From positions 128,001 through 192,000 of the forward strand of contig CBFGTS010000005.1 of assembly GCA_965652295.1 (NCBI GenBank): DNA of 64,000 nucleotides. Direction: 5' to 3'. Both the position numbers and the translations under genes were made by a program. Source of the DNA: an uncultured Haloferula sp. (lineage in GTDB: Bacteria > Verrucomicrobiota > Verrucomicrobiia > Verrucomicrobiales > Akkermansiaceae). Of the stretch, positions 25,787 through 49,115 are shown piece by piece. The first letter of the stretch is position 1; each line of letters opens with the position of its first letter. The notes beneath the pieces are model-generated. The model had not been told where the DNA came from and did not search any database. It was given only the letters and a program-made list of their open reading frames with translations.

Positions 25787-25812
25787 TGTCGGGATCGTCA
25801 GGAGAATCCCGC
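25787..25812 (+). promoter_or_regulatory. Putative ECF promoter TGTCGG-N17-CGC
   Basis: tgtcgg gatcgtcaggagaatcc cgc, about 80 nt upstream of the ATG at 25895. Confidence 0.6.
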
Positions 25813-25894
25813 CCTTTATCAAATAGGGAGGAAATCGCCCTCGTGGGCGGATTCCCCGGTTCAACAACACAAAAAACCTAACCTCGCACTCCCC

Positions 25895-26626
25895 ATGCAA
25901 TACCCCAGCACCTTGAGGAGCATCTGCTTCTTCACCGCAACCTTGGCCGGTGCGCCACTGGCCTTCGGTGCCATCACCTATGTCGACGCCACGCACGGCG
26001 TGAGCGCCAACACCACCGGCTCCACCACGAGCATCGGCGATCCCTTCGTGCCCCTCGCGGTGCAGGGCCCGGCGAATGACAATCAATGGGACGTCCGCGC
26101 CTTCGGCAATGGAACGACCATTTACCAGAATGCCTCCACCCCGGCGAACGTTGACAACGCCCACCGGTTGCGCACATCGGCCACCGTGCCAGCGGGCACT
26201 TACGACGTTTACGCCTTCTTCTGGAGCGACGCGAGCAGTGGCTGGCGCCTTGGCGCGTCCCTCACCGACGACCAGCCCGATCTCACGCTCTACCAGCCCG
26301 GCGATACGGATGTGACCCAGTATTACACGGTCGATACCACCACCAATCTCCCATCGCCGTTCCTGAGTTCGTCTCTTGCCGAAAATCCATTCGATTCGGC
26401 AGTCATGATCGCGGAAGGGAACCGCCGCCTGTACGGGGTGTACCTCGGAACAACCACCGGTACGAGCATCGACGTGTTCATCGATGACGATCCGGCCATG
26501 GCCGATTTCAACCAGCGCACTTGGTATGACGGCATCGGATATGCCGTGGTGCCCGAGCCCTCCTCGCTCGCCTTGGGAGGGCTGGGAATGTTCGGCCTGC
26601 TGATTCGCCGGCACCGCCGGTCCTGA
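25895..26626 (+). CDS. PEP-CTERM sorting-domain protein
   Basis: Signal peptide; ends VPEPSSLALGGLGMFGLLIRRHRRS. Confidence 0.92.
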   Translation: MQYPSTLRSICFFTATLAGAPLAFGAITYVDATHGVSANTTGSTTSIGDPFVPLAVQGPANDNQWDVRAFGNGTTIYQNASTPANVDNAHRLRTSATVPAGTYDVYAFFWSDASSGWRLGASLTDDQPDLTLYQPGDTDVTQYYTVDTTTNLPSPFLSSSLAENPFDSAVMIAEGNRRLYGVYLGTTTGTSIDVFIDDDPAMADFNQRTWYDGIGYAVVPEPSSLALGGLGMFGLLIRRHRRS

Positions 26627-26832
26627 CGCGCCGACGGGATTTTTCCCAGTCTCGTCTTCAGTTGGCGGCATCCGGAATGGGTGTCGCCAAATTCGTTTGG
26701 GAATGGCTCGGAATCCCGGAAAGGAGTAGGTATAGAATTCCCGGCCGACTTCGGTGATTCCATCGACCAGCCATGGCTCCGCCATGGAACTCGGGGGAGC
26801 GCAGGGTCAGGCCCCTTTCGAAAAACGCCCTC

Positions 26833-29800: not shown

Positions 29801-29871
29801 ATCGGGGTTTGTGCGCTGGCAGTCGACGCCAACGCGGCCATCAGCACGGCGGTCGGAAGGGAGGTTTTCAT
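26833..29871 (-). CDS. Large secreted protein with two Ig-like (choice-of-anchor D/ASH-like) segments and C-terminal KAFYR domain
   Basis: Signal peptide MKTSLPTAVLMAALASTASA; TVRFINIG/LTVRNDG segments; two DxDxxGxLD loops; ends APAGKAFYRISLAE. Confidence 0.82.
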   Translation of the reverse strand: MKTSLPTAVLMAALASTASAQTPIDSVDLSGSTLTGIHVGTETFTSLIAPTSFVDNKGSTDYIHLGASAPGSLAEAIGSFDLGSGSLNHSFEVQFGQTLFGAMRIYLILNENDATFGDSATVFPIDSAGNRLGGVSSVLNFNTFGALPVLGVDTYNRTTDGTPGASLDRTIGGIIFTLDDLGIGGIAGTEGIEVVTTTLDPQEIGLAPVDPTLVRDTAAADPDLDFGSTFLTAGAPAETAVRTVRFINIGPTQDVQVNSVTAPAGFTITDVAKNGTGGQTTPFTLAVNDSIEVSVKAQSALTGPDALSGTVTIDTDQDTQDQALAATAVILARNDLMNRNPAFLTGGGTATDWLGGHARVTPGLTPGSGNAVRIFGQGDPGSTTIGRAAQVGTLPDGAPDFESVFVFTPVSDFTPYVGAGASGDFADRGMQYLLYSTDSTVGTGTLITDLDVGNILVNLAYMPDGVEAGGIPGFYVFDGTSGEWQLAVAKTLAGSTDTDLDGILDPAAGDSVEAYRVAIRGIGFGSPGASYDITVSTMGPAGLTGTMNSGPVTSWHGVSGETATVAAHSFTSADDSDSNTNGGFVSPFWIDSSAVYYGEQPDGALMVVGVPGVILADGDVSPVASVPLTVRNDGDDSNLSIDSFDFTDGSFSVAQSLPASIAPGASTAFDLEWDSSLSAPHTAARASFTVGSSDDSSMPALTLTAGLTSSAAYNPNFNFEALGTDAVTDSDTFLFWNEGASIQDVPGLLAGSATCAHVNGGSILGTSYVDPPFWTVSPAWTAEAVFAIGGTNGRVFNFKVREELVGENYAELNIRYEASKWQVFDGIPGGGGAWVDLIDMTTSPLLVSEDNDDNGSLDDVGDVKIAYRLRVSGSGWTAGGAPMFSLEVSDASGNTLGAATGRTELLNGFVVEDMPTFGPNYLEIRNTGSEFWVDDVVIATATATEGVEILSISGGPGGFTIVYDAGGADVVIERSSPGLDGFSEIASGENSGVFTDHGAPAGKAFYRISLAE

Positions 29872-29926
29872 GGGTTGGGAAACGGGATGGAAGCCTCCCG
29901 CGGGCTTGGGTTTGGGCAGGACGACT

Positions 29927-32959: not shown

Positions 32960-32961
32960 GG

Positions 32962-34008
32962 TCAGGGTGCCTCAGTGATCACTTGGAGGCGGATGAAGTT
33001 CTTCCCGGCAGGAAGAGCGAATGGGCGTTTCACCGTTTCGTATGGCATCCAGTTGGATAGATCCGGGCTCTGCTGGATTTCGAAGATCAGGTCGGCGGTC
33101 CCGTCGGAAGCCGGGGCAATAGCGCCATGGCCAGCCAATGCGTGGATGCCGTCGAGATCATGGAGGTCGAAGAATCCAGGGTTGTCCCGGATGGCCTGGA
33201 TCAGGTCGGTTTCCGGAACTCCGGGGTTCAGTCCGACCTCGAGTTCCTGTTCGTCGGTCAGCCCATCGCCATCGGAGTCGAGCGTTGAAAACGGGGTCAC
33301 ATCCGCGAACGTGTTCCCGATCCTCAATTCGTCGATCTGCAGCGATGCCCCGTTCTGCCCGGCCACACGCAGCCGGTCGAATTGAAGATCGGGTGCCTCG
33401 ATCGTGGCATTGGCCTCACCCGTTGGCCCCGTGAGTGGCGGATCCACGAACAGCTCGACGCGGTCGACTCCATCTGTGGCATCGACGGTGAGATGAAGCA
33501 CGATCAGGTGAGTTTGGCCGAATGTTCCCACTCCGGCCGGTTGGGCGGACGCCAGCGCGAAATTGTTGAGGGTAATGGTCGCGGTGGAGGTGGTGCTGGC
33601 ATTGCTGACGGCAAAAACCGACGTCTCCCCCTGATAGAAATTGACTCCCTCAAACAGCGAGTTCGCTGCCGGCAGTCGGTAGAGAAACGAGATCCAGGCG
33701 TCATCGAACGGAGCCCCCGAAACCACCCGGAAACTGCGGGTGGTGGTAGCTCCCGCCGTGTCCAGCGTTCGCCCCGATACCATCAGCGAGCGATGCCCCG
33801 CATCGGTGTATCCCAGAAAATCCGGCGAGACGCGGCAAGACCCGCCATCCTGCGTCCAGGCTGCCGCCCACCCGGCTCCGCCAGCCTGCCCCGTCACGGC
33901 TCCCTCAACATAGTCGAAAGGTTCGTGAACGAGCAGCGCCGCGTCGCACGGGAGGGTGCAAAGCAACCCCGCAAGGACGCGGGGTGCCGCGATTGATGGG
34001 ATCATCAT
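32962..34008 (-). CDS. Secreted hypothetical protein (beta-sandwich plus TSP3-like repeat plus C-terminal KNFIR domain)
   Basis: LLVHEPFDY...GGAGWAAAW...IDELRIGNTFADV; DSDGDGLTDEQE; ends AGKNFIRLQVITEAP. Confidence 0.8.
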   Translation of the reverse strand: MMIPSIAAPRVLAGLLCTLPCDAALLVHEPFDYVEGAVTGQAGGAGWAAAWTQDGGSCRVSPDFLGYTDAGHRSLMVSGRTLDTAGATTTRSFRVVSGAPFDDAWISFLYRLPAANSLFEGVNFYQGETSVFAVSNASTTSTATITLNNFALASAQPAGVGTFGQTHLIVLHLTVDATDGVDRVELFVDPPLTGPTGEANATIEAPDLQFDRLRVAGQNGASLQIDELRIGNTFADVTPFSTLDSDGDGLTDEQELEVGLNPGVPETDLIQAIRDNPGFFDLHDLDGIHALAGHGAIAPASDGTADLIFEIQQSPDLSNWMPYETVKRPFALPAGKNFIRLQVITEAP

Positions 34009-34030
34009 ACGCTGGTGAAAGGCCAGAACC

Positions 34031-34903: not shown

Positions 34904-34942
34904 TGGGTTCAGGGGATTCAGGTTTTGTCAATGACACGCCCT

Positions 34943-35019
34943 ATGCCCCACCCGGCGCAAAAGTTAGCAACTTGACCCTAAAATCGCTCCGTTGCTAAGT
35001 TTTCACCCTTTGCCGGCAT
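34943..35019. promoter_or_regulatory. Back-to-back divergent ECF-type promoters GTTGCTAA-N16-GGCAT
   Basis: + strand 34991-35019: gttgctaa gttttcaccctttgcc ggcat. Minus strand 34971-34943: gttgctaa cttttgcgccgggtgg ggcat. Confidence 0.72.
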
Positions 35020-35044
35020 TTATCCGCGAGAACTTCCATCGACG

Positions 35045-35617
35045 ATGAGCGAACCCTCAGAAGAACGGCCCTGCGAGCACGAGCATCACGTTGCTTCCGT
35101 CCAAGGGCTTTTCCTGAAGTTCCAGCCGATGATCCGGTCCTACATCCTGTCCATCGTCCCTGATTTCACTCTGGCCGAGGATATCCTCCAGGAGACTTTC
35201 CTGGTCGTTTCCCGCAAGTCCGAGAGCTTCGTGCTCGGCACCAGTTTCCCCGCCTGGGTCAAGACCATTGCCCGCTTCAAGGCGCTCGAAACGCTTCGTC
35301 GCGAGCGGGGGAGGCATGTGCTGCTTTCCGAGCAGGTCCTCGAGGCGCTCGACAGCGATCCTCATCCCTATGCCGTTCCGGTTGAGATCGACCGACGGAT
35401 CGAATCCCTCCGCGCCTGCATCGAGCAACTCGCGCCCCAGGCCCGGCGATCCATCGAATACCGCTACCGTGGCGACCACCGGCCTCCGCAGATCGCCCGG
35501 CTTATGGGTTGCTCGGTCAAGTCCATCAACGTCACCCTGTCGCGTGCCCGCGCATTCCTCCGCGAGTGCGTCACCCAGCGGATGGGCATCGAGTCATCCT
35601 CAACATCCTTGCCATGA
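35045..35617 (+). CDS. ECF sigma-70 factor (TIGR02989-like, FecI-type context)
   Basis: AEDILQETFL, FPAWVKTIARF, LRACIEQL...LSRARAFLRECV. Confidence 0.92.
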   Translation: MSEPSEERPCEHEHHVASVQGLFLKFQPMIRSYILSIVPDFTLAEDILQETFLVVSRKSESFVLGTSFPAWVKTIARFKALETLRRERGRHVLLSEQVLEALDSDPHPYAVPVEIDRRIESLRACIEQLAPQARRSIEYRYRGDHRPPQIARLMGCSVKSINVTLSRARAFLRECVTQRMGIESSSTSLP

Positions 35618-37304: not shown

Positions 37305-37841
37305 ATGGAAGAAGACGGTGAATTCTCTCACGATTCAGAGGCCGCTCTCCGCCGCCTCTACCCGGTTCTGCGGGCCATGGCGGGAGAACGGATGGTCTTC
37401 GAGCGTGCGGGACACACTTTGCAGCCGACCGCGCTGGCCCACGAGGCTTGGCTCCGCATGCGGTCAGGCAGAGATCCGAACTGGAAAAACTCATCGCATT
37501 TTTGTGCCGCTGCGGCGGAGACCATGCGGCGGATTTTGATCGACCGCGCACGCCGCAGGAAACGGCTGAAGCACGCCGGGACCATGGAGCGGGTATCCAT
37601 GAGCACCGCGGAGGAAGAGGAAACCGAGCATGACGACGAGCCGGTGCTTCTGGTCAATGCCGCACTGGAGAAGCTCAAGAAGGCGAACCCACTTCGAGCG
37701 AAAGTGGTCCTGCTGAAGTTTTTCGGAGGAATGACCAATCAGGAGGTCGCGGAAGAGCTCGGCGTGACCGAGCGCACCGTGGAGCGGTACTGGGCCTACT
37801 CGAAAACCTGGCTCTTCAGGGAGATTCAAGGTGAGCGCTGA
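37305..37841 (+). CDS. ECF sigma factor, TIGR02999/kinase-associated type
   Basis: HTLQPTALAHEAWLR, AAAETMRRILIDRAR, KFFGGMT...ERTVERYWAYSKTWL. Confidence 0.93.
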   Translation: MEEDGEFSHDSEAALRRLYPVLRAMAGERMVFERAGHTLQPTALAHEAWLRMRSGRDPNWKNSSHFCAAAAETMRRILIDRARRRKRLKHAGTMERVSMSTAEEEETEHDDEPVLLVNAALEKLKKANPLRAKVVLLKFFGGMTNQEVAEELGVTERTVERYWAYSKTWLFREIQGER

Positions 37842-37873
37842 ATCCATCGCCCACCCACTGTCACGATTTCCGC

Positions 37874-37899
37874 TGTCGGTTCCGGCGGCCGGTTGTCGC
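37874..37899 (+). promoter_or_regulatory. Putative ECF promoter TGTCGG-N17-CGC upstream of the kinase gene
   Basis: tgtcgg ttccggcggccggttgt cgc, about 54 nt before the ATG at 37953. Confidence 0.55.
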
Positions 37900-37952: not shown

Positions 37953-40121
37953 ATGAGTGCCTCCAGCCCCACCCCAGAAAGCACCATCGATTCCGTGGAA
38001 ATCGACAACGCGATCTTTGCAACGGCGATGGAGATCACGGACCCGGCCCAGCGCGGCGAATTTCTTGATCGCATCTACCGGGACGATCCGGATGGTCGCA
38101 GCGGCATGGAGAAGCTCGTGGAAATGGCGGGCATTTCCTCCGCCTTCTTTCTCGAAGGCAGCATGGACAGGGCCGAACTGGCGCAACAGGTGATCGAACA
38201 GCTGCCCGACGAGGACTTCCAGGAGGCCGGGGAGGGCACTTCGCTGGAGGAGAAGGAGGGGACGAAGGTCGGTCGCTACACGCTCCTCCGCAAGATCGGC
38301 GAGGGAGGCTGCGGAGAAATCTTCGAGGCCGCGCAGGAAGGCATGATCCGCCCGGTGGCCCTCAAGATCATCCGCCGCGGCATGGACACGGACTCGGTCG
38401 TCTCGCGGTTCGAGGCGGAGCGGTGCGCCTTGGAGATCATGGATCACCCCAACATCGCGCGGGTGCAGGACGCGGGCCGAACGCCCACCGGTCGCCCCTA
38501 CTTCGTCATGGAGCTGGTCCGCGGCCCGACCATCACCACTTTCTGCGAAAACGAGCGTCTCGGAGTCCGGCAACGTCTCGAGCTCTTCCTCATGGTCTGT
38601 CAGGCGATCCAGCACGCGCACCAGAAGGGCATCGTCCACCGCGATATCAAACCGTCGAACATCCTCGTCGAGAGCCTCGACGGGACCTTCGTGCCCAAGG
38701 TGATCGACTTCGGCATCGCCAAGGCCATGCAGCCGAATCTTCCCGGCCGGGAAGAGGTCACCCACTTCGACCATTTCATGGGCACGCCGGCCTACATGAG
38801 CCCCGAGCAGGTCGATATGGGCGGCATGGATATCGACACCCGGGCGGACATCTACAGCCTGGGGGCGCTGCTCTACGAGTTGCTGGCGGGAGTGCCGCCC
38901 TTCGACAGCAAGATGCTGCTTTCCCACGGCGTCACGGAGATGCGCCGGATTCTGCTGGAGGAGACCCCGCCTCTTCCCTCCGAAGCGGCGCGGGCCCTCG
39001 GGGACAGATGGTCGGCTTCGGTCCGCGGCGATCTGGATTGGATCATCTTCAAGGCCATGGAGAAGGAGCGGAACCGCCGCTACCTCACGGTGAACAGTCT
39101 TTCCATGGACCTCCGCCGCTACCTGAAAAACGAGCCCGTTCTCGCCAGAAAGCCGAGCCGGCGGTACCTGATGTCCAAGTTTTTCCATCGCAACCGGCTG
39201 GCTTGCCTGCTGGGTGCGGCGGTGTTGCTTTCATTGATCGGCGGGCTCGGCACGGCCACGGTGATGTATCTGGGGGAAAAGGACGCGCTCGCCGAGCAGG
39301 CGAGGCTGAAACAGCAGGCTCAGGCGCGCGCCAACGTATCGCGGGCCGCCATTCTTCTGAGCGAAGGCAATGCGGAGGAGGCCGACCGCCTGCTGCGGAA
39401 AGACCCGCTGGAGTCGATCGATGCCTCCCCGGAGGCCGCCGAGGTCTTCCGCTCGCTCGGTCACTGGAACGCGGTGCTCGGGCGCTGGCAGCAGGCGGCG
39501 AATTGCTTCCGTCTGATGATCGAGGCCAACCGGCTGGGAGATCCGGATCGGGCGGTGGAGAAGATCGATTTCCTGATGACCGGACCGGCTCTGCTCGAGG
39601 CGGGTGACCGCGCCGGTTATCTCGAATTCCGCGACGAGGTGATGGATCGCTATCTGCCCGCGAAGAACTCGATGCAGGCCGAGCACCTGCTGAAGGTGTG
39701 TCTGCTTGTCCCCGTCGACCGCAAGACCGTCGACCGCCTCGAAACCACCGCCGAGGTGTGCCGGGCCCGGATTCCCACAAAGGAAGGGATGGATTCGTTC
39801 CCGGAATGGAATGCGCTTTCCCTCGCCTTCTTCCACTACCGGCGGGGCGAATTCCGCGAAGCGATCCGCGAAGCACAGACCTGTCTCGGCTTTCACGACC
39901 AGGCGGGCAGCCGGGCTTCGGCGGCGCGCTGCCTGCTTGCCATGTCGCACGACCGGTTGGGGGACCATGAAGAGGCGCGTCGCTTTCTCGACGAGGCCCG
40001 ATCCGCGCTGGAACAGGTCGAGTCGCTGATCGATGAGTCGGGGTTTCCTCCGATCGGCACTTGGTTTTCCTGGGCCACGACGCGGATTCTGATCCGTGAG
40101 GCCGAAGCCCAGATGCGCTAA
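37953..40121 (+). CDS. Membrane Ser/Thr protein kinase (Hanks type) with C-terminal helical/TPR-like domain
   Basis: GEGGCG, VALKII, HRDIKPSN, DFGIAK, GTPAYMSPEQ; TM LLGAAVLLSLIGGLG. Confidence 0.95.
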   Translation: MSASSPTPESTIDSVEIDNAIFATAMEITDPAQRGEFLDRIYRDDPDGRSGMEKLVEMAGISSAFFLEGSMDRAELAQQVIEQLPDEDFQEAGEGTSLEEKEGTKVGRYTLLRKIGEGGCGEIFEAAQEGMIRPVALKIIRRGMDTDSVVSRFEAERCALEIMDHPNIARVQDAGRTPTGRPYFVMELVRGPTITTFCENERLGVRQRLELFLMVCQAIQHAHQKGIVHRDIKPSNILVESLDGTFVPKVIDFGIAKAMQPNLPGREEVTHFDHFMGTPAYMSPEQVDMGGMDIDTRADIYSLGALLYELLAGVPPFDSKMLLSHGVTEMRRILLEETPPLPSEAARALGDRWSASVRGDLDWIIFKAMEKERNRRYLTVNSLSMDLRRYLKNEPVLARKPSRRYLMSKFFHRNRLACLLGAAVLLSLIGGLGTATVMYLGEKDALAEQARLKQQAQARANVSRAAILLSEGNAEEADRLLRKDPLESIDASPEAAEVFRSLGHWNAVLGRWQQAANCFRLMIEANRLGDPDRAVEKIDFLMTGPALLEAGDRAGYLEFRDEVMDRYLPAKNSMQAEHLLKVCLLVPVDRKTVDRLETTAEVCRARIPTKEGMDSFPEWNALSLAFFHYRRGEFREAIREAQTCLGFHDQAGSRASAARCLLAMSHDRLGDHEEARRFLDEARSALEQVESLIDESGFPPIGTWFSWATTRILIREAEAQMR

Positions 40122-40144
40122 AAGCACCTGCATCGGAAATTGGC

Positions 40145-40171
40145 TGTCGGGTTCCGACCGCCCGGCATCGC
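40145..40171 (+). promoter_or_regulatory. Putative ECF promoter TGTCGG-N18-CGC
   Basis: tgtcgg gttccgaccgcccggcat cgc, just after the kinase stop and about 76 nt before the ATG at 40247. Confidence 0.58.
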
Positions 40172-40246
40172 AATAGGAGGTCGGAGGCAGTCCGCATTCG
40201 CGTCCGCGCGATGCAGGGCTCTCCTGTCAACCCAACCAAACCCAAT

Positions 40247-42499
40247 ATGCAGATGACCCATTGGAATGCGGGGCGAGCCTTTTCGGCGTGCCTCTTCGCC
40301 GTCACCATGACCACAGCCCACGCGGACACGATCGTCCAGACCGTGGGAAACATCGATTGGAATGCCGCCATGTGGGGCACGCCCGCCGCGGCTCCGACTG
40401 CAGGAAATGACTATGTATCGGCCACGGGAGTTCAGGACGAGCGTTTCCGCATCAGCGCGGACGGCCTGTCTTCAACCTTCGGCGGCGACTCCCTCACCGT
40501 GGTTCCCGGCACCCGGGCGCTGATGAAAAACCAGAGCGGCGCGACCGCGACCATCAACGGTGACTTCATCCTCGACGGGGGGCGGCTTTCCTTCGGTCCC
40601 AATGGCGGCCCCCACACCGGCACGCTCGATGTAGTGAACTTCGTCGTCGGCGGCACCGGTTCCTTCATCGATCCCAGCAGTTCCGTCTCGGCCCTGACCA
40701 TCGATGGCATCCTCACCGGCAGCGGCGACCTCCTGATCACTCCGGAGAACGGCACCAACACGAAGACCGTCACTTTCACGGAGGTCGGGGACTACACCGG
40801 GAACCTGACCGTCAGCTCCACCATTCTGCTCGATTTCAATGTCGATCACGAATTCACCGGCAGCCTGACGCTGGACGGTTCGGCCATCCTCTATGTCGAT
40901 CAGACGCTGACCTTCCAGGCGGGAAATCTCGTGGCTGATGGCATCGTGATCCCGCCCGGCACCTACTCCGGTGCCTCGATCTTCGACCTCGGTCTCAATT
41001 TCGACGACGGCGGCGGAACCTTGATCGTGGAAGGTTCCTTTCCCGATGCCGATAACGACGGACTGCCCGATTTCTACGAGGATCAGATCATCGCTTTTGA
41101 TGACACCGACGATGTCGATGGCTACGAAGATATCGCCGGCCCGAACGACGCGCCCGCCACCACGGATTTCGATGGCGACGGCCGCACGGACACCGAGGAG
41201 TATGCGGACGGCGTCGCGGAAAACCAGACCGACCCGACCGATCCCGACGTTGACGACGACGGGCTCCTTGATGGGTCTGAGTTCGCCGGCACGGACAACA
41301 ATGGGACCCCGACGGGCTTCGGCGCGACGGACCCCTTCGACGCCGACAGCGACGACGACGGCTTCACCGATGGCATTGAGGTTCGCTATGGCTTCAATCC
41401 AAACGACGACACGGCGCTGCCCGGAGATGCCGCACCGATCGTCAATGGAGGCTTCGAAACACCGGCTCTTCCCGTTTTTGGCGAAGGCATCAGCGTCGAT
41501 GACGAATCCGTGCCCGGCTGGGAGACCACGGTGAACGACTTCTACGTCCTCGACTTTTTTGCCGCGACCGACGTCAACAATCCCGACAGTGCCAGCGAGG
41601 GATTCCAATTCGCCACTGCGGTTCGCGGGGCCCCCGAACCGGACGTGGACCCATCAGCCTACGTGGGTGGCGCCGACGCAACCATGGGCATGCGGCAGGA
41701 CGTGGATGTGAGCGCACTCGCCACTCAGATCGACGAGGGAGCCCGGACCTTTCTCCTGGATTTCGATTGGCGGGAAAACGACACCGCCGATATGGGAGTG
41801 GTCACGATCTCCTTCCTGGATGGATCGGGCACCGAGCTCGGCCGCCCATCGGTTTTTGAAACAAGCGGGGGCCTCCAGGCTTGGACTTCCACCCGCCAGG
41901 CAGCGTTCCCGCCGGTCGGCACACGCACCGTCCGTATCACCGCGGAGGCAATCAAAATCGGCACGGGAACTTCGACCGTGCGGAATGTTCACTTCGACGA
42001 CTTCAAGGGTCGGCTGGTGGACTTCGATGCCGACAATGACGAACTTCCCGATCCGTGGGAACTCCTCTACGGCCTTGATCCGGATGATGCCGGCGATGCC
42101 TCCATCAGCTCGGATGGCGACAGCCTCACCAATCTCGAGGAATTCGAGTTTGGCACCGATCCCTCGCTCGCCGATACGGATGGCGATGGTATCAACGACG
42201 ATGTCGAAATCGACAATGAGACCGATCCGCTCGATCCCGCATCGCCGGCCCAGGACGTCGAGGTGGTGGACATCATCACCACCACCAACGCAAGCGGCCA
42301 GGTGACCCAGGTGGAGGTCGTCTTCAGCGGGCTGAACGTCAATACGACGTACAGCCTGATGCGGGGCACCGATCTGATCACTTTCCCGGATGCCGTCGAC
42401 TCAGGGCTCCCCGAATCCGCGACCGATAGTTACTTCGATCTCACCCCGCTGCCGAGTGAGACGAGCGGCAAGGCGTTCTACCGACTGGAAGATCAATAG
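40247..42499 (+). CDS. Secreted surface protein with beta-strand-rich N-terminus, TSP3-like repeats, CBM-like NGGFE domain and C-terminal KAFYR domain
   Basis: Signal peptide; PTAGNDY...FGGDSLT; DxDxDG repeats; IVNGGFE; ends SGKAFYRLEDQ. Confidence 0.83.
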   Translation: MQMTHWNAGRAFSACLFAVTMTTAHADTIVQTVGNIDWNAAMWGTPAAAPTAGNDYVSATGVQDERFRISADGLSSTFGGDSLTVVPGTRALMKNQSGATATINGDFILDGGRLSFGPNGGPHTGTLDVVNFVVGGTGSFIDPSSSVSALTIDGILTGSGDLLITPENGTNTKTVTFTEVGDYTGNLTVSSTILLDFNVDHEFTGSLTLDGSAILYVDQTLTFQAGNLVADGIVIPPGTYSGASIFDLGLNFDDGGGTLIVEGSFPDADNDGLPDFYEDQIIAFDDTDDVDGYEDIAGPNDAPATTDFDGDGRTDTEEYADGVAENQTDPTDPDVDDDGLLDGSEFAGTDNNGTPTGFGATDPFDADSDDDGFTDGIEVRYGFNPNDDTALPGDAAPIVNGGFETPALPVFGEGISVDDESVPGWETTVNDFYVLDFFAATDVNNPDSASEGFQFATAVRGAPEPDVDPSAYVGGADATMGMRQDVDVSALATQIDEGARTFLLDFDWRENDTADMGVVTISFLDGSGTELGRPSVFETSGGLQAWTSTRQAAFPPVGTRTVRITAEAIKIGTGTSTVRNVHFDDFKGRLVDFDADNDELPDPWELLYGLDPDDAGDASISSDGDSLTNLEEFEFGTDPSLADTDGDGINDDVEIDNETDPLDPASPAQDVEVVDIITTTNASGQVTQVEVVFSGLNVNTTYSLMRGTDLITFPDAVDSGLPESATDSYFDLTPLPSETSGKAFYRLEDQ

Positions 42500-42517
42500 G
42501 CTTCACTTGATAAGGAC

Positions 42518-42556
42518 AAAGCCGCCGTCCCTCCCGGGGTCGGCGGCTTTTTTCTT
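42518..42556 (+). terminator. Rho-independent terminator, possibly bidirectional
   Basis: aaagccgccg...cggcggcttt stem followed by tttctt, between convergent genes. Confidence 0.78.
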
Positions 42557-42684
42557 CGAGAAGGGGTGGGACCGGGAAGAGGGAAGGGGACGGCACCATG
42601 TCCGCGCGGAGGCACAACCCGAACCTCCGCGCGGAGCCAGGATCCGGTGGGAAGCCACCGGAAAAAGAGGGGCCTCATGGATCT

Positions 42685-43488
42685 TCAGCGCCGCCGCCGA
42701 CGCGCTACGGCACCCAGTAGCAGCGGCAGTCCGAGCACCGGCACGGTCGGCTCCGGCACGCCGAGCGCGGCTCCCACGATGTTGTCGAGAAGCTGAACGC
42801 CGTTCGAAGTGAAGTTGCTGAAGTCCTCGGGCAAAGCGTAGAAATAGCGGGCATCCCCGAGGGTATTCCCGCTGCCCGTGGTACCGCCTGCCTCCCAGCT
42901 CGCCACGATCACGTTCTGGAAATTGATGTTGTTCCGCACGGCAATGGTCATGCCATCACCCATCACCGTGCCACCGTCCGGGATGTCCGAACTGGAGGAA
43001 AATGAATACTTCTCAAGTCCTGAGATGGCGGGATCGGCGATCGTGTTTCCAATAAGTCCGGAGAACAATGGGTGGACGGTGGCCGTTCCCGGAGGTGCCG
43101 AAAGGTCGTTCCCGTAGTCCACTTGGATGAGATCCGTATTCACATAGCTCCAGCGATTGTTGCGGGCGATGTAGGCGTTTCCGAGCACCACCGGTGTGGT
43201 CAGGGAATCCCACGCGGCGACTTCCAGAGTGCCATCCGCGTAGTTTCCGCTGTTCGTGTTGCGTGTCACGATGACGAGGTCCGCCGCGTTGAGCGTGGCG
43301 ACGTCGGCCGGATTCGATTCGATGGTGGCGTAGCCACCGGTCGCCACCGTGTGGCCGAGCGACTGCAGGTGGGAAACCAGGTCGCCGTCTCGCACGGCAT
43401 CGCCAGTGACCACCACGACGGAGGCGGCGGGAGCCGCGCCGGCGAGGCAGAGAGCGATGAGGAAGAAGGGGGTGGATGGGTTGATCAT
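42685..43488 (-). CDS. PEP-CTERM sorting-domain protein
   Basis: Signal peptide; ends VPEPTVPVLGLPLLLGAVARRRRR. Confidence 0.9.
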   Translation of the reverse strand: MINPSTPFFLIALCLAGAAPAASVVVVTGDAVRDGDLVSHLQSLGHTVATGGYATIESNPADVATLNAADLVIVTRNTNSGNYADGTLEVAAWDSLTTPVVLGNAYIARNNRWSYVNTDLIQVDYGNDLSAPPGTATVHPLFSGLIGNTIADPAISGLEKYSFSSSSDIPDGGTVMGDGMTIAVRNNINFQNVIVASWEAGGTTGSGNTLGDARYFYALPEDFSNFTSNGVQLLDNIVGAALGVPEPTVPVLGLPLLLGAVARRRRR

Positions 43489-43560
43489 GGGAATGGGTAG
43501 AGGTTGGGGTTGGGGTTGGCCGGGGTTTTCGCAAAAGTGAACCCCCTATCCCGTGTACTC

Positions 43561-43586
43561 GCGTCTTCCCGCCGCAAAACCCGACA
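43561..43586 (-). promoter_or_regulatory. Putative ECF promoter TGTCGG-N17-CGC
   Basis: Minus strand tgtcgg gttttgcggcgggaaga cgc, about 73 nt before the ATG at 43488. Confidence 0.6.
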
Positions 43587-43729
43587 GGGATTTTCATCAA
43601 CCCTCCGCGGCTCACCATGACGCCACGGCACAAGCAAGCCGGCCGCCCGGGGGTAACCCAAGAACCCCGAGCGACCGGCAACCCCGAAAAACCTTCGCGA
43701 TGGCCAAGGCGGACGTCATCAGCCCTGGC

Positions 43730-45151
43730 TCATAGTTGGTAAAACTGCTCCCACCCTTCCCGCGGCGGCACGCCCTTGAGGAGTTCGTTGGCGATCTTGT
43801 GATTCGTGATGCGCCGGGAGGCAGGATCGAACTCGAGCTTGGCGTTCACCCGCTGGGCGATGATGCCGAGTGCCATGGCCTGGCACAGCGGTCCGGCGAC
43901 CGCGAAGTTGGATCGGCACTTCTCTTCTCCCATCGCGGACTTCAGGAAATTCGCAGCGTGGTTGGACGGACTCGGGGGCACCTCGGGCAATTCGGACCGG
44001 ACGTCCTCCGCCCTTTCTCCACCGATGATCTCCAGCGTGGACGCGTGGGAGCCGCCCTTGAAGACCAACTCGTCGCCATAAATCACCTTGCCCGGTGCGT
44101 GGACCTTGGTGTCGATGCTGCCGGCCGAGGGCGGCGGAATGTTGGGGTCCACAACGGCTTTGCCGAAATTCCCGGGAAGGGGCGGAAGATTGCGCTGACC
44201 ATCGTACCAAGTCAGTTCCACCGGCGGCAGCGATCCCCGCTTGGGGAAACGGAAGGCCAGCGTGGAGGCCTGCGGGAAAATCAACGGACTGTAACCCTCC
44301 AGCGTGGGCTCGATCTCGGTCGGCAGGCCGAGCTCAAGAAACTCATGGGCGGTGTCGAAAATGTGCGCTCCCCAGTCACCCAGCGCTCCGTTCCCGAAGT
44401 CATACCAAGAACGCCACTCACCATTCATATACCCCTTGTTGTAGGCGTGGTCGCGCGCCGTCGAGAGCCAGCCATCCCAATCAAGGATCTCCGGCACCGG
44501 CTGTCCGGGAAAGTAATCATCCACCTTCATCCCATGCCAGCGGCGGGGATTGTTCATGAAGGCGGTGATGCGGTCCACGTTGCGGATGATTCCTTCGTCC
44601 ACCCATGTCTTGAACTGGAAGTAGTTGGCCTCGGAGTGCCCTTGATTGCCCATCTGACAGGCCACGCCGTATTTCTTCTCCCCCGCCATCATCAGCTCGA
44701 TCTGCAGGTAGCTGTGTGCCATGGGTTTCTCGACGTAGAGGTGCTTGCCAAGCGACATCGCCAACATCGACACGGGGAAGTGCGAGAAATCGGGCGTGGC
44801 CACGCAGACGGCATCGATCTTGTCCTCCATGGCATCGAACATCTTCCGGAAGTCCTGGAAGCGCGGCACGCCGGGGAACATCTTCAGGATGTGCTCGGTG
44901 TGCGGGGCTCCCATTTCCGTGTCGCACAGGGCCGTGATCTCGGCCAGGCCGGTCCGGTGGAGATCCTGAATGACATCCCGGCCCCGGTTGCCGATGCCCA
45001 CGCAGGCGAGACGGACTTTCTGCCGGCCGGGCGCGGCCAGCAGGATGTTCGGAAAACAAGCGCTCGCCGCCCCCGCGGAGAGGGCGCCTTTCAGAAACGA
45101 GCGGCGTTGGATGACCGCGGGCTTTGGAGTCATGGGAACGTGGGAATTCAT
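43730..45151 (-). CDS. Tat-exported Gfo/Idh/MocA family NAD-dependent oxidoreductase
   Basis: QRRSFLK Tat motif, CVGIGNRG, ATPDFSH, YVEKP, QMGNQ, GALGDWGAH. Start could be 45133. Confidence 0.92.
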   Translation of the reverse strand: MNSHVPMTPKPAVIQRRSFLKGALSAGAASACFPNILLAAPGRQKVRLACVGIGNRGRDVIQDLHRTGLAEITALCDTEMGAPHTEHILKMFPGVPRFQDFRKMFDAMEDKIDAVCVATPDFSHFPVSMLAMSLGKHLYVEKPMAHSYLQIELMMAGEKKYGVACQMGNQGHSEANYFQFKTWVDEGIIRNVDRITAFMNNPRRWHGMKVDDYFPGQPVPEILDWDGWLSTARDHAYNKGYMNGEWRSWYDFGNGALGDWGAHIFDTAHEFLELGLPTEIEPTLEGYSPLIFPQASTLAFRFPKRGSLPPVELTWYDGQRNLPPLPGNFGKAVVDPNIPPPSAGSIDTKVHAPGKVIYGDELVFKGGSHASTLEIIGGERAEDVRSELPEVPPSPSNHAANFLKSAMGEEKCRSNFAVAGPLCQAMALGIIAQRVNAKLEFDPASRRITNHKIANELLKGVPPREGWEQFYQL

Positions 45152-45186
45152 GGGTTCAGTAAAAAATCGCAGCGGAGGCATCAGGC

Positions 45187-45954
45187 TCAAGGGACCCGGA
45201 TCTTGATGTTGCGGAACGAGACGAGGTTCCCGTGGTCTTGCAAGAGGATGTGGCCATCCTTCCATTCGCCGAACTCGGGGATGTCCTTGTATTTGCTCCG
45301 GGCCACGAGGTCCCGGAAACCGGCGGAGCCCCGATCATATTCGAGAACCTTCTCGCCATTCAGCCAGTGCTCGATGCGGTCTGAAGTCGCCACGATGCGC
45401 GCGGTGTTCCACTCACCGATCGGATTCACCTTCTTCCCATCCTTGGCGGTCTTCAGGTCATAGAGCGACCCGATCGTGCGGTTCCCGTCACGCCCCATCT
45501 TGGCGTCCGGGTGGCGGACATCGTCGAGAATCTGGAACTCCAGCCCGATGGCGGACCCGACCGCGGTGGGGCGTCCGGTGTGGCGGTCGATCGGCTTCAG
45601 ATTGGGCTGCACGAAGTACTTGATCCCGCTGTTCGCTCCTGCGGTGATCTTGAAATCGACCATCAACTCGAACGCCTCGAAGCGCTCCTTCGAGATGATG
45701 TCACCGCCGCCGGTCGACTCTCCTCCGTCGGTTGGTAGCACGGAAAGCACGCCATCCTCGATCTTCCAACCGCTTGTCGGAAAGAATTCGGACTTCGGCG
45801 AGCGCCATCCGTCCGAGGTTTTTCCATCCCACAGCAAGCGCCAACCGTCTTGCTTTTCCGTCGCGGTCAGGGTGTTGGGAGGGGCGGGATCGGCCGCCAA
45901 TGCGGACAACAGGCTACCGAACAGGCCGAGGTGGAGCATCAGGAGGGCTTTCAT
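45187..45954 (-). CDS. DUF1080 (3-keto-disaccharide hydrolase family) protein
   Basis: GWRLLWDGKT, ANSGIKY, EFQILDD, GEWN, EHWLNG, GHILLQDHG...FRNIKIR. Confidence 0.92.
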   Translation of the reverse strand: MKALLMLHLGLFGSLLSALAADPAPPNTLTATEKQDGWRLLWDGKTSDGWRSPKSEFFPTSGWKIEDGVLSVLPTDGGESTGGGDIISKERFEAFELMVDFKITAGANSGIKYFVQPNLKPIDRHTGRPTAVGSAIGLEFQILDDVRHPDAKMGRDGNRTIGSLYDLKTAKDGKKVNPIGEWNTARIVATSDRIEHWLNGEKVLEYDRGSAGFRDLVARSKYKDIPEFGEWKDGHILLQDHGNLVSFRNIKIRVP

Positions 45955-46043
45955 GAATCAGGCGACAATGGATCTTTCGTAAGTTCGGGAGGGAGCCGGT
46001 AACCGGGACGTCCGGTGAAAAGCGTCACCCTCCTAAAAGGTAT

Positions 46044-46069
46044 TCGACTTCGGGACCTGTTTCCCGACA
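46044..46069 (-). promoter_or_regulatory. Putative ECF promoter TGTCGG-N17-CGA
   Basis: Minus strand tgtcgg gaaacaggtcccgaagt cga, about 90 nt before the ATG at 45954. Confidence 0.55.
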
Positions 46070-46205
46070 GCGAATTTCATGATGTCGCGGAAATCCTGTT
46101 CCCGATGACGGTCGCGTTCGCTGGACAAGAATCGCCTTCACGGTTCTCCACCCCGATGATACAGGCTCCTACTGGCGATGATGTCCGCCCCGGTGCAAAC
46201 CCACC

Positions 46206-46799
46206 TTGCCGGAACCCCTCCCCCAACCCTTGGACGAGCTTACGAAAATCCTTAAAACCTCCAGCGGGACCGGCAGTCTCGCCTCGGAGGAGCTGTTGCC
46301 GTTGGTTTACGACGAGCTCCGGAACTTCGCCAAACGGCTCATGTCGAAGGGCGCGCTTCAAGGCACCCTGCAAGCAACCGCCCTGGTCCACGAGGCCTGG
46401 ATCAAGCTTTCGAATCATGAGGGCCGGATCTGGTGCGACCGGACCCAGTTTTTCCGCACGGCGGCACAAGCCATGCGCCATATTCTGGTGGACCGCGCAC
46501 GAGCCAAGATGAGTCTCAAACGTGGATCGAACCCGGAACGGATCTCCTTCCAGGCGGAAGGGCTCGATATCGCGGAAACCTCACCCGACGAACGAGTGCT
46601 GATGGTCGACGAAATGCTGCATCGTTTGGAAGTCGAGGATCCGGAGAGCGCGCGGGTGATTTCCCTCAAGTTCTTCGGTGGCCTGACGAACAAGGAGCTG
46701 GCGGCAATCGACGGAGTGACGGAGCGAACCGTGGAACGGCAGTGGGCGTTTGCGAAATCCCGGCTCTACCGCTTCATCCGTGAGGAAACCGGAAGGTGA
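46206..46799 (+). CDS. ECF sigma factor, TIGR02999/kinase-associated type
   Basis: ELLPLVYDELR, TLQATALVHEAW, AAQAMRHILVDRAR, KFFGGLT...ERTVERQW. Start (TTG) uncertain, 46206 or 46230. Confidence 0.92.
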   Translation: MPEPLPQPLDELTKILKTSSGTGSLASEELLPLVYDELRNFAKRLMSKGALQGTLQATALVHEAWIKLSNHEGRIWCDRTQFFRTAAQAMRHILVDRARAKMSLKRGSNPERISFQAEGLDIAETSPDERVLMVDEMLHRLEVEDPESARVISLKFFGGLTNKELAAIDGVTERTVERQWAFAKSRLYRFIREETGR

Positions 46800-49000
46800 T
46801 GAGCGGGTCCATCGACAGGCTGCTTTTCGCCGCTGCCTGCGGCCTGGGTGATAGGGAGGAACGAGAGTCGTTCCTCGACCACGTCTGCCGCGACGATCCC
46901 GAGCTTCGGAAGCTGCTGGACGAAATGTTGACGGTGCATGTCGAAGCGGAGGAGTTCTTCACGTTTCCTCCGCCGCGGATTCCGGAGCCGCCGGAGCAGG
47001 CCCTGTCCGGGCGGAAGGAGGAGGAGCTGGGAACAAGGATCGGCCGCTACCGCTTGATCGAAAGAATCGGCGAAGGCGGTTGCGGCGTGGTCTATCTGGC
47101 CGAGCAACTAGAGCCGGTGTGGCGGAAGGTCGCCTTGAAGATCATCCGCGTGGGCATGGATACGGAGAGCGTCATCGCGCGCTTCGAAATCGAGCGGCAG
47201 GCATTGGCCCTCATGGACCACCCGAACATCGCGCGGGTGCTCGATGCTGGGGCCACCGCTACGGGGAGACCTTATTTCGTGATGGAGTTGGCGGAGGGCG
47301 AGAAAATCACGGATTTCTGCGATCGCAGGAGCTTCGGAGTGCCCCAGCGACTCGCTCTTTTCATCCAGGTCTGCGAAGCGATCCAGCACGCCCACCAGAA
47401 AGGCGTGGTCCATCGCGACATCAAACCTTCGAACGTCCTTGTCCGCGAGCATGAGGGCCGGCTGGTGCCGAAGGTCATCGATTTTGGGATCGCCAAGGTC
47501 ACCGCGGGCGAGCTGCTGCCGGAAGGCACCGCGACGCGGACCGGCCAATTGATCGGCACGCCCGCCTACATGAGCCCCGAGCAGGCGGAAGGAGATGAGG
47601 ACATCGACACCCGCAGTGACATTTACAGCTTGGGCGCCCTGCTGTTCGAACTGCTTGCGGGGTCTCCCCCCGTAGTTCTGGAAGGGCTTGCCATGGCCGG
47701 GGAGAAAGGAATCCGCGATGCCTTGCGGGAAGGCCCGAAGGAAACCCCATCCGCACGGTTGCTCAAGGTTGCTACCGAGAGCGCAGCCTTGATCGCAGCG
47801 CTCCGGGGAGTCGAGCCAGACCACCTTTCCGGGATTCTCGCGCGGGACCTCGACTGGATCGTGATGAAGGCGATCGAGCGAGATCGTCAACGGCGTTATG
47901 AGACGGCGAATGGGCTGGCTCTTGATGTTGCTCGATATTTGAAAGGGCAGCCGGTGGTCGCGCGACCGCCGAGCCGGTGGTATCTGATCACCAAGCTGGT
48001 GGGGCGCAACCGCGTCACCTTCGCTGCCGCCGGGATCGCGCTCTTCGGCTTGGTGGGAGGCTTCGGCGTTTCCACCTGGCTGTTTTTCAGCGAACGCAGC
48101 GCCCGGCATGAGCAGGCGAGGCTGCGGATGCTGGCGGAAAAAGCGACCGCCAACGAGGTCCGCCTCAGGGACAACGCGCGGGTGGCGGATCAGGTCAGGC
48201 AGGCTGCCGTCCTTCTGAAATACAACGACACCGAGGCCGCCGATCAGCTCCTCGACGGCCTCCAGCCGGAACGGATCCCGCGCTCGCTCGAAGCCTCCTC
48301 CACTTACATGCACGTCGCCAACTGGCACCTTTCGCAAGAGCGCTGGCAAATGGCGGCGAAGCGCTTCCATGCCTTGGGCCATGTCGTCACCAGCGTCGAC
48401 ATGACCGATTCCCAGGACATTTCCTTCCGTTTGCTGCCCGTTCTGACGGCGGTGAGCCTGTGGGGTGAGCCCGGCCATTACAGAAAGATCCGCGACCTGG
48501 CGATCGACCGCTTTGTTGACTCGGCGAACCCGATCGTGGCCGAACATGTGGTCAAAGCCGCTCTCCTTGAGCCTCCCGACTCCGCTACCTTGGAGGAACT
48601 CACGCCTTTGATCGCCGTCCTTGAGAATTCCCTGGAAATCCCCCAGACCGACAAGGGGCCTCACATGGTGGCTTGGCGCAAGTTCTCCCTCGCCCTGATG
48701 GCCTATCGGCGCGGCCGCTTCGAAGAGGCCGCAGCGAGGGCCCGTGAAAGCCGGGCATTGGCTTCCAACAGCGCTCCCAGGACCGTTTCCAACGAACTCC
48801 TCCTCGCCATGATCGACCTCAGGCAGGGCAAGGTGGACTCCGGTCGCGAAAGCTTGGCAGCCTTGAGGAAAGAAGTGGATGGTTGGTTGGCGGAGCCTTT
48901 TCAGATCACGAACCCGGACGGCACCCTCTGGTACAACCAGTATGCAACTTTGATTTTGCTGCTGGAGGCCGAGCAATTGGCCGGGGAAATCCTCCATTAG
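46796..49000 (+). CDS. Membrane Ser/Thr protein kinase (Hanks type)
   Basis: GTGA overlap with the sigma; GEGGCG, HRDIKPSN, DFGIAK, GTPAYMSPEQ; TM FAAAGIALFGLVGGFGVSTWLF. Confidence 0.95.
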   Translation: MMSGSIDRLLFAAACGLGDREERESFLDHVCRDDPELRKLLDEMLTVHVEAEEFFTFPPPRIPEPPEQALSGRKEEELGTRIGRYRLIERIGEGGCGVVYLAEQLEPVWRKVALKIIRVGMDTESVIARFEIERQALALMDHPNIARVLDAGATATGRPYFVMELAEGEKITDFCDRRSFGVPQRLALFIQVCEAIQHAHQKGVVHRDIKPSNVLVREHEGRLVPKVIDFGIAKVTAGELLPEGTATRTGQLIGTPAYMSPEQAEGDEDIDTRSDIYSLGALLFELLAGSPPVVLEGLAMAGEKGIRDALREGPKETPSARLLKVATESAALIAALRGVEPDHLSGILARDLDWIVMKAIERDRQRRYETANGLALDVARYLKGQPVVARPPSRWYLITKLVGRNRVTFAAAGIALFGLVGGFGVSTWLFFSERSARHEQARLRMLAEKATANEVRLRDNARVADQVRQAAVLLKYNDTEAADQLLDGLQPERIPRSLEASSTYMHVANWHLSQERWQMAAKRFHALGHVVTSVDMTDSQDISFRLLPVLTAVSLWGEPGHYRKIRDLAIDRFVDSANPIVAEHVVKAALLEPPDSATLEELTPLIAVLENSLEIPQTDKGPHMVAWRKFSLALMAYRRGRFEEAAARARESRALASNSAPRTVSNELLLAMIDLRQGKVDSGRESLAALRKEVDGWLAEPFQITNPDGTLWYNQYATLILLLEAEQLAGEILH

Positions 49001-49089
49001 CGCCGGTGCCGGAGGGGCTTGCCCTGGGATGACCGAGGCGTGCCGTGGTGCGGGCGGCTGACGGGAACATCATCGCCCGGAAAAAAGCG

Positions 49090-49115
49090 TGTCGGGTCCG
49101 GGAGACAGAATCCGT
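49090..49115 (+). promoter_or_regulatory. Putative ECF promoter TGTCGG-N17-CGT
   Basis: tgtcgg gtccgggagacagaatc cgt, after the kinase stop and about 65 nt before the ATG at 49180. Confidence 0.6.

Follow-up and report, generated by a model that had tools for sequence, protein, structure and literature searches.

A likely promoter motif of kinase-linked TIGR02999 (ECF43-like) sigma factors ahead of surface-protein and glycan genes in an uncultured Haloferula

According to our analysis, the bipartite motif TGTCGG-N17/18-CG(C/T/A), found in a 64,000-nt stretch of DNA from an uncultured Haloferula (the window), is likely the -35/-10 promoter of TIGR02999 (ECF43-like) sigma factors. This had been suggested by a sequence-only reading of the window, and it is supported by clustering of the motif at these sigma genes and by covariation of its bases with sigma residues. 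We are highly confident in the reading as a whole, in which such a promoter is combined with a phosphorylation switch operated by the adjacent kinase and with a small local regulon of surface and glycan genes. Features typical of ECF promoters are present, the motif being bipartite, fixed in spacing, intergenic, oriented and variable at bases which track sigma residues. ECF promoter logic, kinase activation and the specificity code are themselves already known.

All six copies listed in the sequence-only reading occur at their positions and on their strands (Table 1), with a spacer of 17 nt in five of them and of 18 nt in the copy at 40145. Each is intergenic and points at the next gene, with about 54-90 nt from the end of the motif to the ATG, or 79-115 nt if counted from where the hexamer begins. 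The strict motif has 16 matches in the window, and the 10 outside these six, all in coding DNA, score at most 3.7 with a context matrix vs 10.3-24.6 for the six intergenic sites, four of which were seed sites of that matrix; the two that were not, 25787 (with an A-tract upstream) and 40145, score 15.4 and 10.3, respectively.

Table 1. Predicted promoters, sigma factors, kinases and likely target genes in the window
Feature	Position	Strand	Remarks
Predicted promoter TGTCGG-N17-CGC	25787..25812	+	before PEP-CTERM gene 25895; Arg-type
PEP-CTERM protein	25895..26626	+	behind 25787 site
Sigma 1, TIGR02999/PF07638	37305..37841	+	QPTA motif
Predicted promoter TGTCGG-N17-CGC	37874..37899	+	sigma 1 / kinase 1 junction
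Kinase 1	37953..40121	+	N-terminal helical domain, Hanks kinase, TPR region
Predicted promoter TGTCGG-N18-CGC	40145..40171	+	3' of kinase 1, ahead of surface protein
Secreted/surface protein with TSP3 repeat	40247..42499	+	likely sigma 1 target; alternative start 40211
PEP-CTERM-type protein	42685..43488	-	likely target; C-terminal VPEP...RRRR seen directly
Predicted promoter TGTCGG-N17-CGC	43561..43586	-	before PEP-CTERM gene 43488; score 24.6 (seed site)
DUF1080 (3-keto-disaccharide hydrolase) + Gfo/Idh/MocA oxidoreductase	43730..45954	-	likely targets
Predicted promoter TGTCGG-N17-CGA	46044..46069	-	before DUF1080/oxidoreductase pair; divergent from sigma 2
Sigma 2, TIGR02999/PF07638	46230..46799	+	QATA motif; ORF open from 46206
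Kinase 2	46799..49000	+	best PDB match X. citri PknS (9EED)
Predicted promoter TGTCGG-N17-CGT	49090..49115	+	3' of kinase 2, ahead of LamG/PEP-CTERM operon
LamG PEP-CTERM protein, LamG/TSP3 protein, GH31 glycosidase	49180..56569	+	likely operon behind 49090

Two weaker variants proposed earlier have the expected letters but fail on scoring: the one before the lyase (25620) scores -4.1, the best site of that region reaching -2.4, and the one before the 12097 gene (12233) scores -19.3, its CATC falling on the -10 element of the motif GCTAAG-N18-CATC, which occurs at TIGR02989 loci. Both the 12097 gene and the 34903 block have, instead, this GCTAA-N-CAT type of motif that accompanies TIGR02989 sigmas, and about 9 of the 37 called genes stand behind a TGTCGG-type site; control of most of the island, as once claimed, is not supported, and the predicted regulon of the window sites is local. 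Genome-wide the GCTAAG-N18-CATC motif has just 10 sense vs 7 antisense matches, and for this reason we take it as a lead only; at the five relatives' loci examined, no sigma-kinase pair was found within 1.5-kb flanks of homologues of the 12097 gene. One further candidate, at 63726 with a spacer of 16 nt, found no support in matrix scoring, and a scored match upstream of the called gene 32962-33726 was set aside, as it lies inside a longer ORF to 34107. Terminator and sigma-70 scans gave results at chance level.

Enrichment is seen near TIGR02999 sigmas and hardly over the genome as a whole, where 21 strict matches in 2270 upstream regions compare with 13.7±3.9 (maximum 23) in 100 shuffles, and where TGTCGG alone shows no excess (111 vs 113). 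The genome has 11 TIGR02999 sigma genes, and the motif is present in 11/61 regions within 5 kb of one of them vs 9/2209 elsewhere; with the window's contig left out and a radius of 10 kb the figures are 6/80 vs 8/2062 (p 5e-6). Similarly, a site precedes 8 of the 11 PEP-CTERM genes near a TIGR02999 sigma and 0/52 of those far away.

At TIGR02999 loci of other genomes the strict motif is found in 24/38 and 13/60 cases, with the spacer peak at 17. The 38 GTDB loci do not serve as cross-phylum evidence, since their titles are unreliable: the phylum sample built around the locus titled 'Sulfopaludibacter' shares members with that of the window's phylum. Scanned with a matrix that ignores the variable bases, 573 regions give 105 sense and 45 antisense sites, and with this matrix frozen, held-out sets of 198 and 101 regions give 34 vs 4 and 17 vs 1, respectively. 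A site is seen at 100 of 227 TIGR02999 sigma loci, no site reaching the threshold at the other 127 (many short contigs, crude gene calls). A by-eye check picked out the predicted site class beside a Pseudoalteromonas sigma and a Paludisphaera sigma and no clear predicted site at Eleftheria and Persicobacter loci, two Gemmatirosa loci being left unscored. Positions that were not scored also carry a signature: among 27 sigmas less than 65% identical, a pyrimidine-purine step stands at -1/+1 in 13/27 vs a background of 0.21, and one turn of the helix upstream A/T amounts to 0.69 vs 0.36 (phased A-tracts). It could be argued that we deal with chance matches in GC-rich DNA, or with sequence inherited together with duplicated sigma-kinase cassettes, as TGTCGG is common, most window matches are coding and a dispersed 85-bp repeat also contains the hexamer; however, the strand bias in held-out sets, the spacer fixed at 17, the A-tracts with the -1/+1 signature and coupled changes that recur across the sigma tree make this hardly credible.

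We also consider it very unlikely that the sites are read by another protein, such as an ECF41/ECF42-type sigma, the TIGR02989/FecR sigma that the window has at 35045, or some transcription factor acting on surface genes. The motif does closely resemble that of ECF42, the promoters given in the PMC7826278 supplement being TGTCACA/CGTC for ECF41 and TGTCGAT/CGTC for ECF42, with the same TGTC-type -35 and CG-type -10, and homologues of the 25895 gene adjoin sigmas of either the TIGR02999 or the TIGR02989 type. The ECF41/ECF42 sigmas described there have a 120-200 aa C-terminal extension and no kinase, whereas those analysed here are 178-190 aa long, end just past region 4.2 and have no extension. 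The strict motif occurs at 0/40 TIGR02989 control loci, PEP-CTERM genes far from TIGR02999 sigmas have no site, and a distant factor would leave covariation with the residues of the adjacent sigma unexplained.

Such covariation is consistent with reading by TIGR02999 sigmas. At 100 loci, a count which includes two held-out sets and many close kin, the fifth -35 base is G with Glu (58/60) or Asp (4/6) and C with Arg/Lys (25/26) at the sigma-4.2 position, and the third -10 base is C with Arg (65/73) and T with His (21/21) at the sigma-2.4 position; the rules were written down before the held-out tests. If all sites are counted, His-type sigmas have T at 21/26, and Gln at this position goes with T in 2/4. 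On the sigma trees, which are quick trees, the -35 rule agrees in direction in 6/6 independent pairs on well-supported branches (p about 0.03), and the -10 rule in 3-4 of 4 independent pairs, which is not significant. A supposed dependence of the sixth -35 base on the Gly168-equivalent did not survive the test on independent pairs. The suggestion that the third -10 base distinguishes the two window sigmas stands for CGC with the Arg of sigma 1 and CGT with the His of sigma 2, but not for CGA as a signature of sigma 2, since A is found at 6/65 sites of Arg-type sigmas and at 0/26 of His-type ones; in site 46069 it is a poor fit to both classes.

The same residue-base pairs were described by Todor et al. 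(PMC7776599), namely Arg171 with -31, Asn84 with -13/-12 and Asn80 with -11, and they appear here in a family whose members mostly lack autoregulation. According to the mutagenesis in Dataset S3 of that paper, Arg171 favours C (0.88), Lys C (0.98) and Asp84 CG (0.62), in line with our pairing of Arg/Lys with C and of Asp with CG; the sole Gln84 paralogue having sites shows CA at both. In the host sigma used there, the G preference of Glu171 is weak (0.33) and Arg172 has none; Tyr171 favours G (0.86), whereas Tyr at the equivalent position here goes with A in three related loci, which disagrees. A search of the accessible portions of its supplements gave no Verrucomicrobia terms.

Pooled regulons, in which any paralogue of the same class reads the sites in trans, are compatible with the main reading and alter only the reader, and we regard them as a possible though less favoured arrangement. 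No more than 7 promoter classes are seen among the 11 paralogues, TGTCGG/CGC being common to three and TGTCGG/CGT to two; the reader of site 25787 is uncertain because 11.5 kb separates it from sigma 1, its nearest TIGR02999 sigma; and site 46069 is mismatched to the His of its neighbour. Against pooling, 21/24 scored sites of the genome have a TIGR02999 sigma no more than 12 kb away, and site sequence tracks the adjacent sigma, which requires selection by the local paralogue. The earlier idea of insulated paralogues is upheld insofar as the class bases track sigma residues, and weakened as each class has several further paralogues in the rest of the genome, so that insulation is partial.

Both window sigmas exceed the curated cut-offs (167.5 and 179.7 bits with TIGR02999 vs 126.15) and possess, respectively, Arg76 and His84 (RpoE Asn80-equivalent), Asp80 and Asp88, and Glu160 and Glu169 (Arg171-equivalent). 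QPTA or QATA is present in 98/109 sigmas where the acidic sigma-2.2 motif would stand, the published ECF43 consensus being QTTA, and a kinase gene lies directly 3' (+1) of both window sigmas and at 87/109 loci overall. Judged by the PF07638/TIGR02999 domain, the +1 kinase gene and the Thr-containing motif, the sigmas are ECF43-like. The kinases are predicted to be membrane proteins, as was claimed, with one helix each (about 415-435 in kinase 1, about 405-425 in kinase 2); TPR profile matches are found in kinase 1 only, and the N-terminal helical domain has no Pfam family.

A similar arrangement is seen, as far as the available parts of the sources tell, in the ECF43 pairs EcfK/PknS of Xanthomonas citri (PMC13147305) and EcfP/PknT of Vibrio parahaemolyticus (PMC8999054, PMC8103513), in which a PF07638 sigma with QxTA replacing the acidic motif neighbours the gene of a Hanks kinase that crosses the membrane once and bears an N-terminal extension made of helices. 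Unlike there, the host is verrucomicrobial with 11 paralogues in one genome, and the predicted control is of PEP-CTERM, LamG and glycan genes rather than of type VI secretion or polymyxin resistance. The 2021 description of the ECF43 group, in its accessible part, covers Proteobacteria only, though a wider set of >900 members has been cited. No promoter motif for either pair was found in the consulted portions of the three papers. The ECF43 prediction by Casas-Pastor et al. (PMC7826278) has GTC in the -35, which is contained in TGTCGG, and CAG at -10, where we see CG(C/T). An autoregulation-based search likely misses the motif, because a site stands upstream of the sigma gene itself in just 2/104 and 1/36 cases, and neither sigma 1 nor sigma 2 has one.

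By analogy with EcfP/PknT and EcfK/PknS, we propose that an outside signal at the periplasmic domain of the kinase would lead to phosphorylation of the Thr of QxTA, and that RNA polymerase binding would thereby be regained. The Arg171-equivalent would read the fifth -35 base (acidic to G, basic to C), Asp at the Asn84-equivalent position the CG of the -10, and the Asn80-equivalent the base after it (Arg to C, His to T), with transcription predicted to start 13 nt past the C of CG, which in the window would be at 25823, 37910, 40182, 43550, 46033 and 49126. The active sigma would switch on a few surface-protein and glycan genes nearby, in many cases also the kinase gene but rarely its own. Sigma 1 may read 37874, 40145, 43586, whose Arg-type -10 appears to fit it, and perhaps 25787; the placement of 37874 would give positive feedback on kinase 1. 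Relatives L116, L117 and L119 have sites both at the sigma-kinase junction and 3' of the kinase, as with 37874 and 40145. Sigma 2 may read 49090, whose His-type -10 appears to fit it, the reader of 46069 being ambiguous; relatives L001-L004 have T/CGTCGG-N17-CGT at the place equivalent to 49090, and the first genes behind it, probably co-transcribed as a set, are syntenic in L002 and L004. An orthologous sigma 2 cassette occurs in the cultured species Haloferula luteola and H. sargassicola.

The N-terminal helices of the kinase are predicted, in one model, to hold sigma-4. The complex of the N-terminal 60 aa of kinase 2 with sigma 2 scores 0.62 vs 0.01 for the best of 3 controls, where the score mark is reached by 116/157 solved and 2/215 mismatched pairs and is rough for the alignments used here; between runs at least 68% of contacts are the same, with partner pLDDT of at least 78. 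The model supports binding of sigma-4 by this domain. Tentatively, we may even suggest that the kinase is both activator and anti-sigma, its helical domain masking the -35 recognition helix of the sigma at the membrane until signal-triggered phosphorylation and release, and that together with a two- or three-residue promoter code the sigma-kinase-promoter unit could be a portable, largely self-insulated switch, multiplied in Verrucomicrobia for cluster-by-cluster surface and glycan control.

Knowledge of kinase-activated ECF sigmas comes from two model pairs, and the portions of the literature searched gave no measured promoter of such a sigma. Likely targets of TIGR02999 sigmas are mostly adjacent surface-protein genes. 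Promoter bases change with two predicted DNA-reading residues, and therefore likely targets may be predictable from sequence, both in uncultured Verrucomicrobia and outside this group; patterns for the family match about 41,000 metagenome stretches. The promoter code also suggests how genomes with at least 10 paralogues may limit crosstalk, and it would place surface proteins of the PEP-CTERM and LamG kinds under a particular signalling pathway.

Family scans placed in the window two TIGR02999/PF07638 sigmas (sigma 1, 37305..37841, and sigma 2, 46230..46799), a Hanks kinase following each, together with a single TIGR02989 sigma paired with a FecR-type protein, and the region was rich in PEP-CTERM, LamG, TSP3 and glycan-active proteins; genes were called with a hexamer model built for this analysis, so that start positions are approximate. 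The nearest relatives of sigma 2 (73-81% identity) are proteins of Luteolibacter, Haloferula and a Spartobacteria bin, which marks the genome as verrucomicrobial. The sequence-only reading had taken a bipartite motif, TGTCGG-N17/18-CG(C/T/A), for the promoter of the TIGR02999-type sigmas. Its six copies (25787, 37874, 40145, 43586, 46069 and 49090) were located exactly where that reading had placed them, each upstream of a gene and pointing toward it, and we hold the promoter assignment as a well-supported prediction on the grounds of clustering and covariation.

The proposed comparison with shuffled sequence gave hardly any genome-wide enrichment upstream of genes (21 strict matches in 2270 regions versus 13.7±3.9 in 100 shuffles); the signal of the motif is positional, not genome-wide. 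The genome holds 11 TIGR02999 sigmas above the cut-off, and the motif occurs in 11 of the 61 upstream regions within 5 kb of one versus 9 of 2209 elsewhere, or, with the window's contig left out, in 6/80 regions at 10 kb versus 8/2062. The motif goes with the sigma and not with the type of target gene: a scored site precedes 8 of 11 PEP-CTERM genes near a TIGR02999 sigma and none of the 52 far from one. The predicted regulons are local, since 21 of 24 scored sites genome-wide are no more than 12 kb from a TIGR02999 sigma, a count for which matrix and base classes were partly built from the same loci. The suggestion that the circuit controls most of the island was too broad, as about 9 of 37 called genes stand behind a site when co-transcription is inferred from gene spacing, and two weaker variants proposed before the lyase gene at 25497 and the 12097 gene both fail site scoring. 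The gene at 25497 belongs to a pair (13486-25497, minus strand) encoding very large secreted proteins of the alginate lyase family, 2194 and 1449 aa long and bearing LamG, Fn3, Ig and CBM domains, upstream of which no site of the TGTCGG type was found. A dispersed repeat, 77-87% identical and present in at least nine places outside the window, contains TGTCGG in several copies (Table).

The 12097 surface-protein gene and the 34903/35045 pair bear a different motif, GCTAA-N-CAT, seen at TIGR02989 loci. In the window it faces the TIGR02989 sigma on one side and a divergent PEP-CTERM gene on the other, an arrangement suggestive of autoregulation by a FecR-coupled sigma; genome-wide it gives only 10 sense versus 7 antisense matches. 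At the TIGR02989 control loci (L129-L168), spaced motifs of the AAGATT-N-GTA type and TAAAC-N17-CAT are enriched and are likely promoters of TIGR02989 subgroups. Upstream of the 12097 gene lies a truncated TIGR02999 sigma remnant (12411-12587, minus strand), an N-terminal part that stops at a TGA immediately past LVHEA and has no kinase after it.

Table. Coordinates of the second candidate promoter and of the dispersed repeat (G000 entries in contig coordinates)
Feature	Location	Strand	Context
GCTAA(G/C)-N17/18-CAT	window 34904-35044	both	faces TIGR02989 sigma and divergent PEP-CTERM gene
GCTAA(G/C)-N17/18-CAT	~160 nt upstream of 12097	-	
GCTAA(G/C)-N17/18-CAT	G000:C4:124026/124207; L216		
~85 bp repeat	G000:C1:619479-619563, C4:219568-219826, C2:303399, C5:57855, C5:85059, C6:176137, C8:31495, C9:194618		

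Beyond this genome, relatives of sigma 2 had the strict motif at 24 of 38 loci, and it occurred at 13 of 60 loci among the 62 TIGR02999 places listed, with a spacer peak at 17; none of 40 control loci, chosen among 150 listed TIGR02989 places, carried it. A matrix built from 64 strict sites, with -35 positions 3-6 and -10 positions 3-4 left unscored, gave 105 sense versus 45 antisense sites in 573 regions. Sites stand ahead of the first gene past the kinase (42/69), the kinase (11/52) or a divergent gene (9/31), and rarely ahead of the sigma itself (2/104). Several sites at L074, L086, L085 and L087 precede a called ATG by exactly 36 nt, so that the mRNAs would be leaderless. In one case (G000:C8:43938 and C8:48679) two genes for surface proteins stand between a sigma paralogue and its likely kinase. 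Five loci (L012, L018, L020, L023, L025) carry titles of Acidobacteria, Chloroflexota or Bifidobacterium, yet have verrucomicrobial-type cassettes; the phylum sample of L018 overlapped the window's own, so these titles may be wrong.

Among the matches listed in the literature searches there was no measured promoter for this sigma family and nothing on its verrucomicrobial members; work on the EcfK regulon reportedly exists, so a motif from Xanthomonas may already have been published. For ECF43, the prediction of the ECF reclassification is 'GTC in -35 and CAG in -10'; its motifs for ECF41 and ECF42 are of the TGTC type (PMC7826278).

Both window sigmas have QxTA at the place taken by acidic residues in other ECFs. 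In EcfK and EcfP the adjoining kinase phosphorylates this Thr, which allows polymerase binding (PMC13147305, PMC8999054, PMC8103513). Kinases 1 and 2 have one predicted membrane helix each. The best solved relative of kinase 2, N-terminal extension included, is PknS, whose extension is disordered in the crystal; no Pfam family matched the 60-residue extension of kinase 2. In a complex model this extension sits on the -35 recognition helix of sigma 2 (residues 169-184), with a score of 0.62 (best of three controls 0.01), contacts agreeing to at least 68% and partner pLDDT of at least 78, a mark reached by 116/157 solved versus 2/215 mismatched pairs, counts only roughly applicable here. The model supports binding of the extension to sigma 2 and would fit docking and inhibition alike; resemblance to anti-sigma complexes of solved structure may play a part in this result.

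In a first set of 109 loci, 61 had a site; when a single site was taken for each sigma, the bases left unscored tracked the adjacent sigma. Base-residue rules were fixed in writing before testing, and the frozen matrix was then run on two new sets. Among 38 new loci it found sites at 23 (34 sense versus 4 antisense in 198 regions), with Glu going with G (12/12) and Arg/Lys with C (10/11) at -35, Arg with C (20/21) and His with T (1/1) at -10, and, contrary to the rule, Gln once with C. Among 80 metagenome loci there were sites at 16 (17 sense versus 1 antisense in 101 regions), with Arg/Lys to C in 5/5 and acidic residues to G in 6/9 at -35. Over all sets a site was found at 100 of 227 loci, where the -35 rule reads Glu to G 58/60, Asp to G 4/6 and Arg/Lys to C 25/26, and the -10 rule Arg to C 65/73, His to T 21/21 and Gln to T 2/4; with all sites counted and not the best only, His-type sigmas have T at 21/26. 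On a tree made without the trait columns, six of six independent pairs on well-supported branches follow the -35 rule in the same direction (p about 0.03), and 3-4 of four pairs agree with the -10 rule, which is not significant. In the TIGR02999 alignment, Glu about 7 residues before QxTA goes with C as third -10 base in 34/35 loci and other residues mostly with T; this Glu is possibly coupled to Arg at the Asn80-equivalent.

Outside the phylum, six plasmid loci were read by eye, all scored but the two from Gemmatirosa. Beside a Pseudoalteromonas sigma (Glu, His), TGGCGG-N17-CGT precedes a giant Ig-like protein; beside a Paludisphaera sigma (Asp, Arg), TGAGGC-N17-CGC occurs twice; and the Eleftheria and Persicobacter loci gave no clear site. 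The further proposal, insulation of paralogues by the third -10 base, is plausible for sigma 1 (Arg-type) versus sigma 2 (His-type), but the 11 sigma paralogues fall into only 7 promoter classes; 25787 could be read by any of three paralogues, and 46069 (CGA) fits both Arg and His rules poorly.

In a profile alignment with M. tuberculosis SigL, the variable residue of sigma-4.2 matches the Lys in GTVKSR and that of sigma-2.4 the Asn in ARNMIID, positions which we take to be RpoE Arg171, Asn80 and Asn84. Todor et al. assign these to promoter positions -31, -11 and -13/-12; their measured values at 171 are C 0.88 for Arg, C 0.98 for Lys, G 0.33 for Glu and G 0.86 for Tyr, and at 84 CG 0.62 for Asp and CA 0.32/CG 0.25 for Gln (PMC7776599). 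Arg/Lys and Asp agree with these values; the Glu preference is weak there, and Tyr is in disagreement. In this genome the paralogue with Gln84 carries TGTCGG-N17-CAC twice behind its kinase. Bases that entered no scoring are promoter-like too: among 27 sigmas less than 65% identical, a pyrimidine-purine step stands at the predicted -1/+1 in 13 of 27 versus a background of 0.21, and the A/T share 13-17 nt upstream is 0.69 versus 0.36 further up. Judged from sequence, the motif is a real, well-supported predicted promoter of TIGR02999 sigmas, working within a known kind of control.
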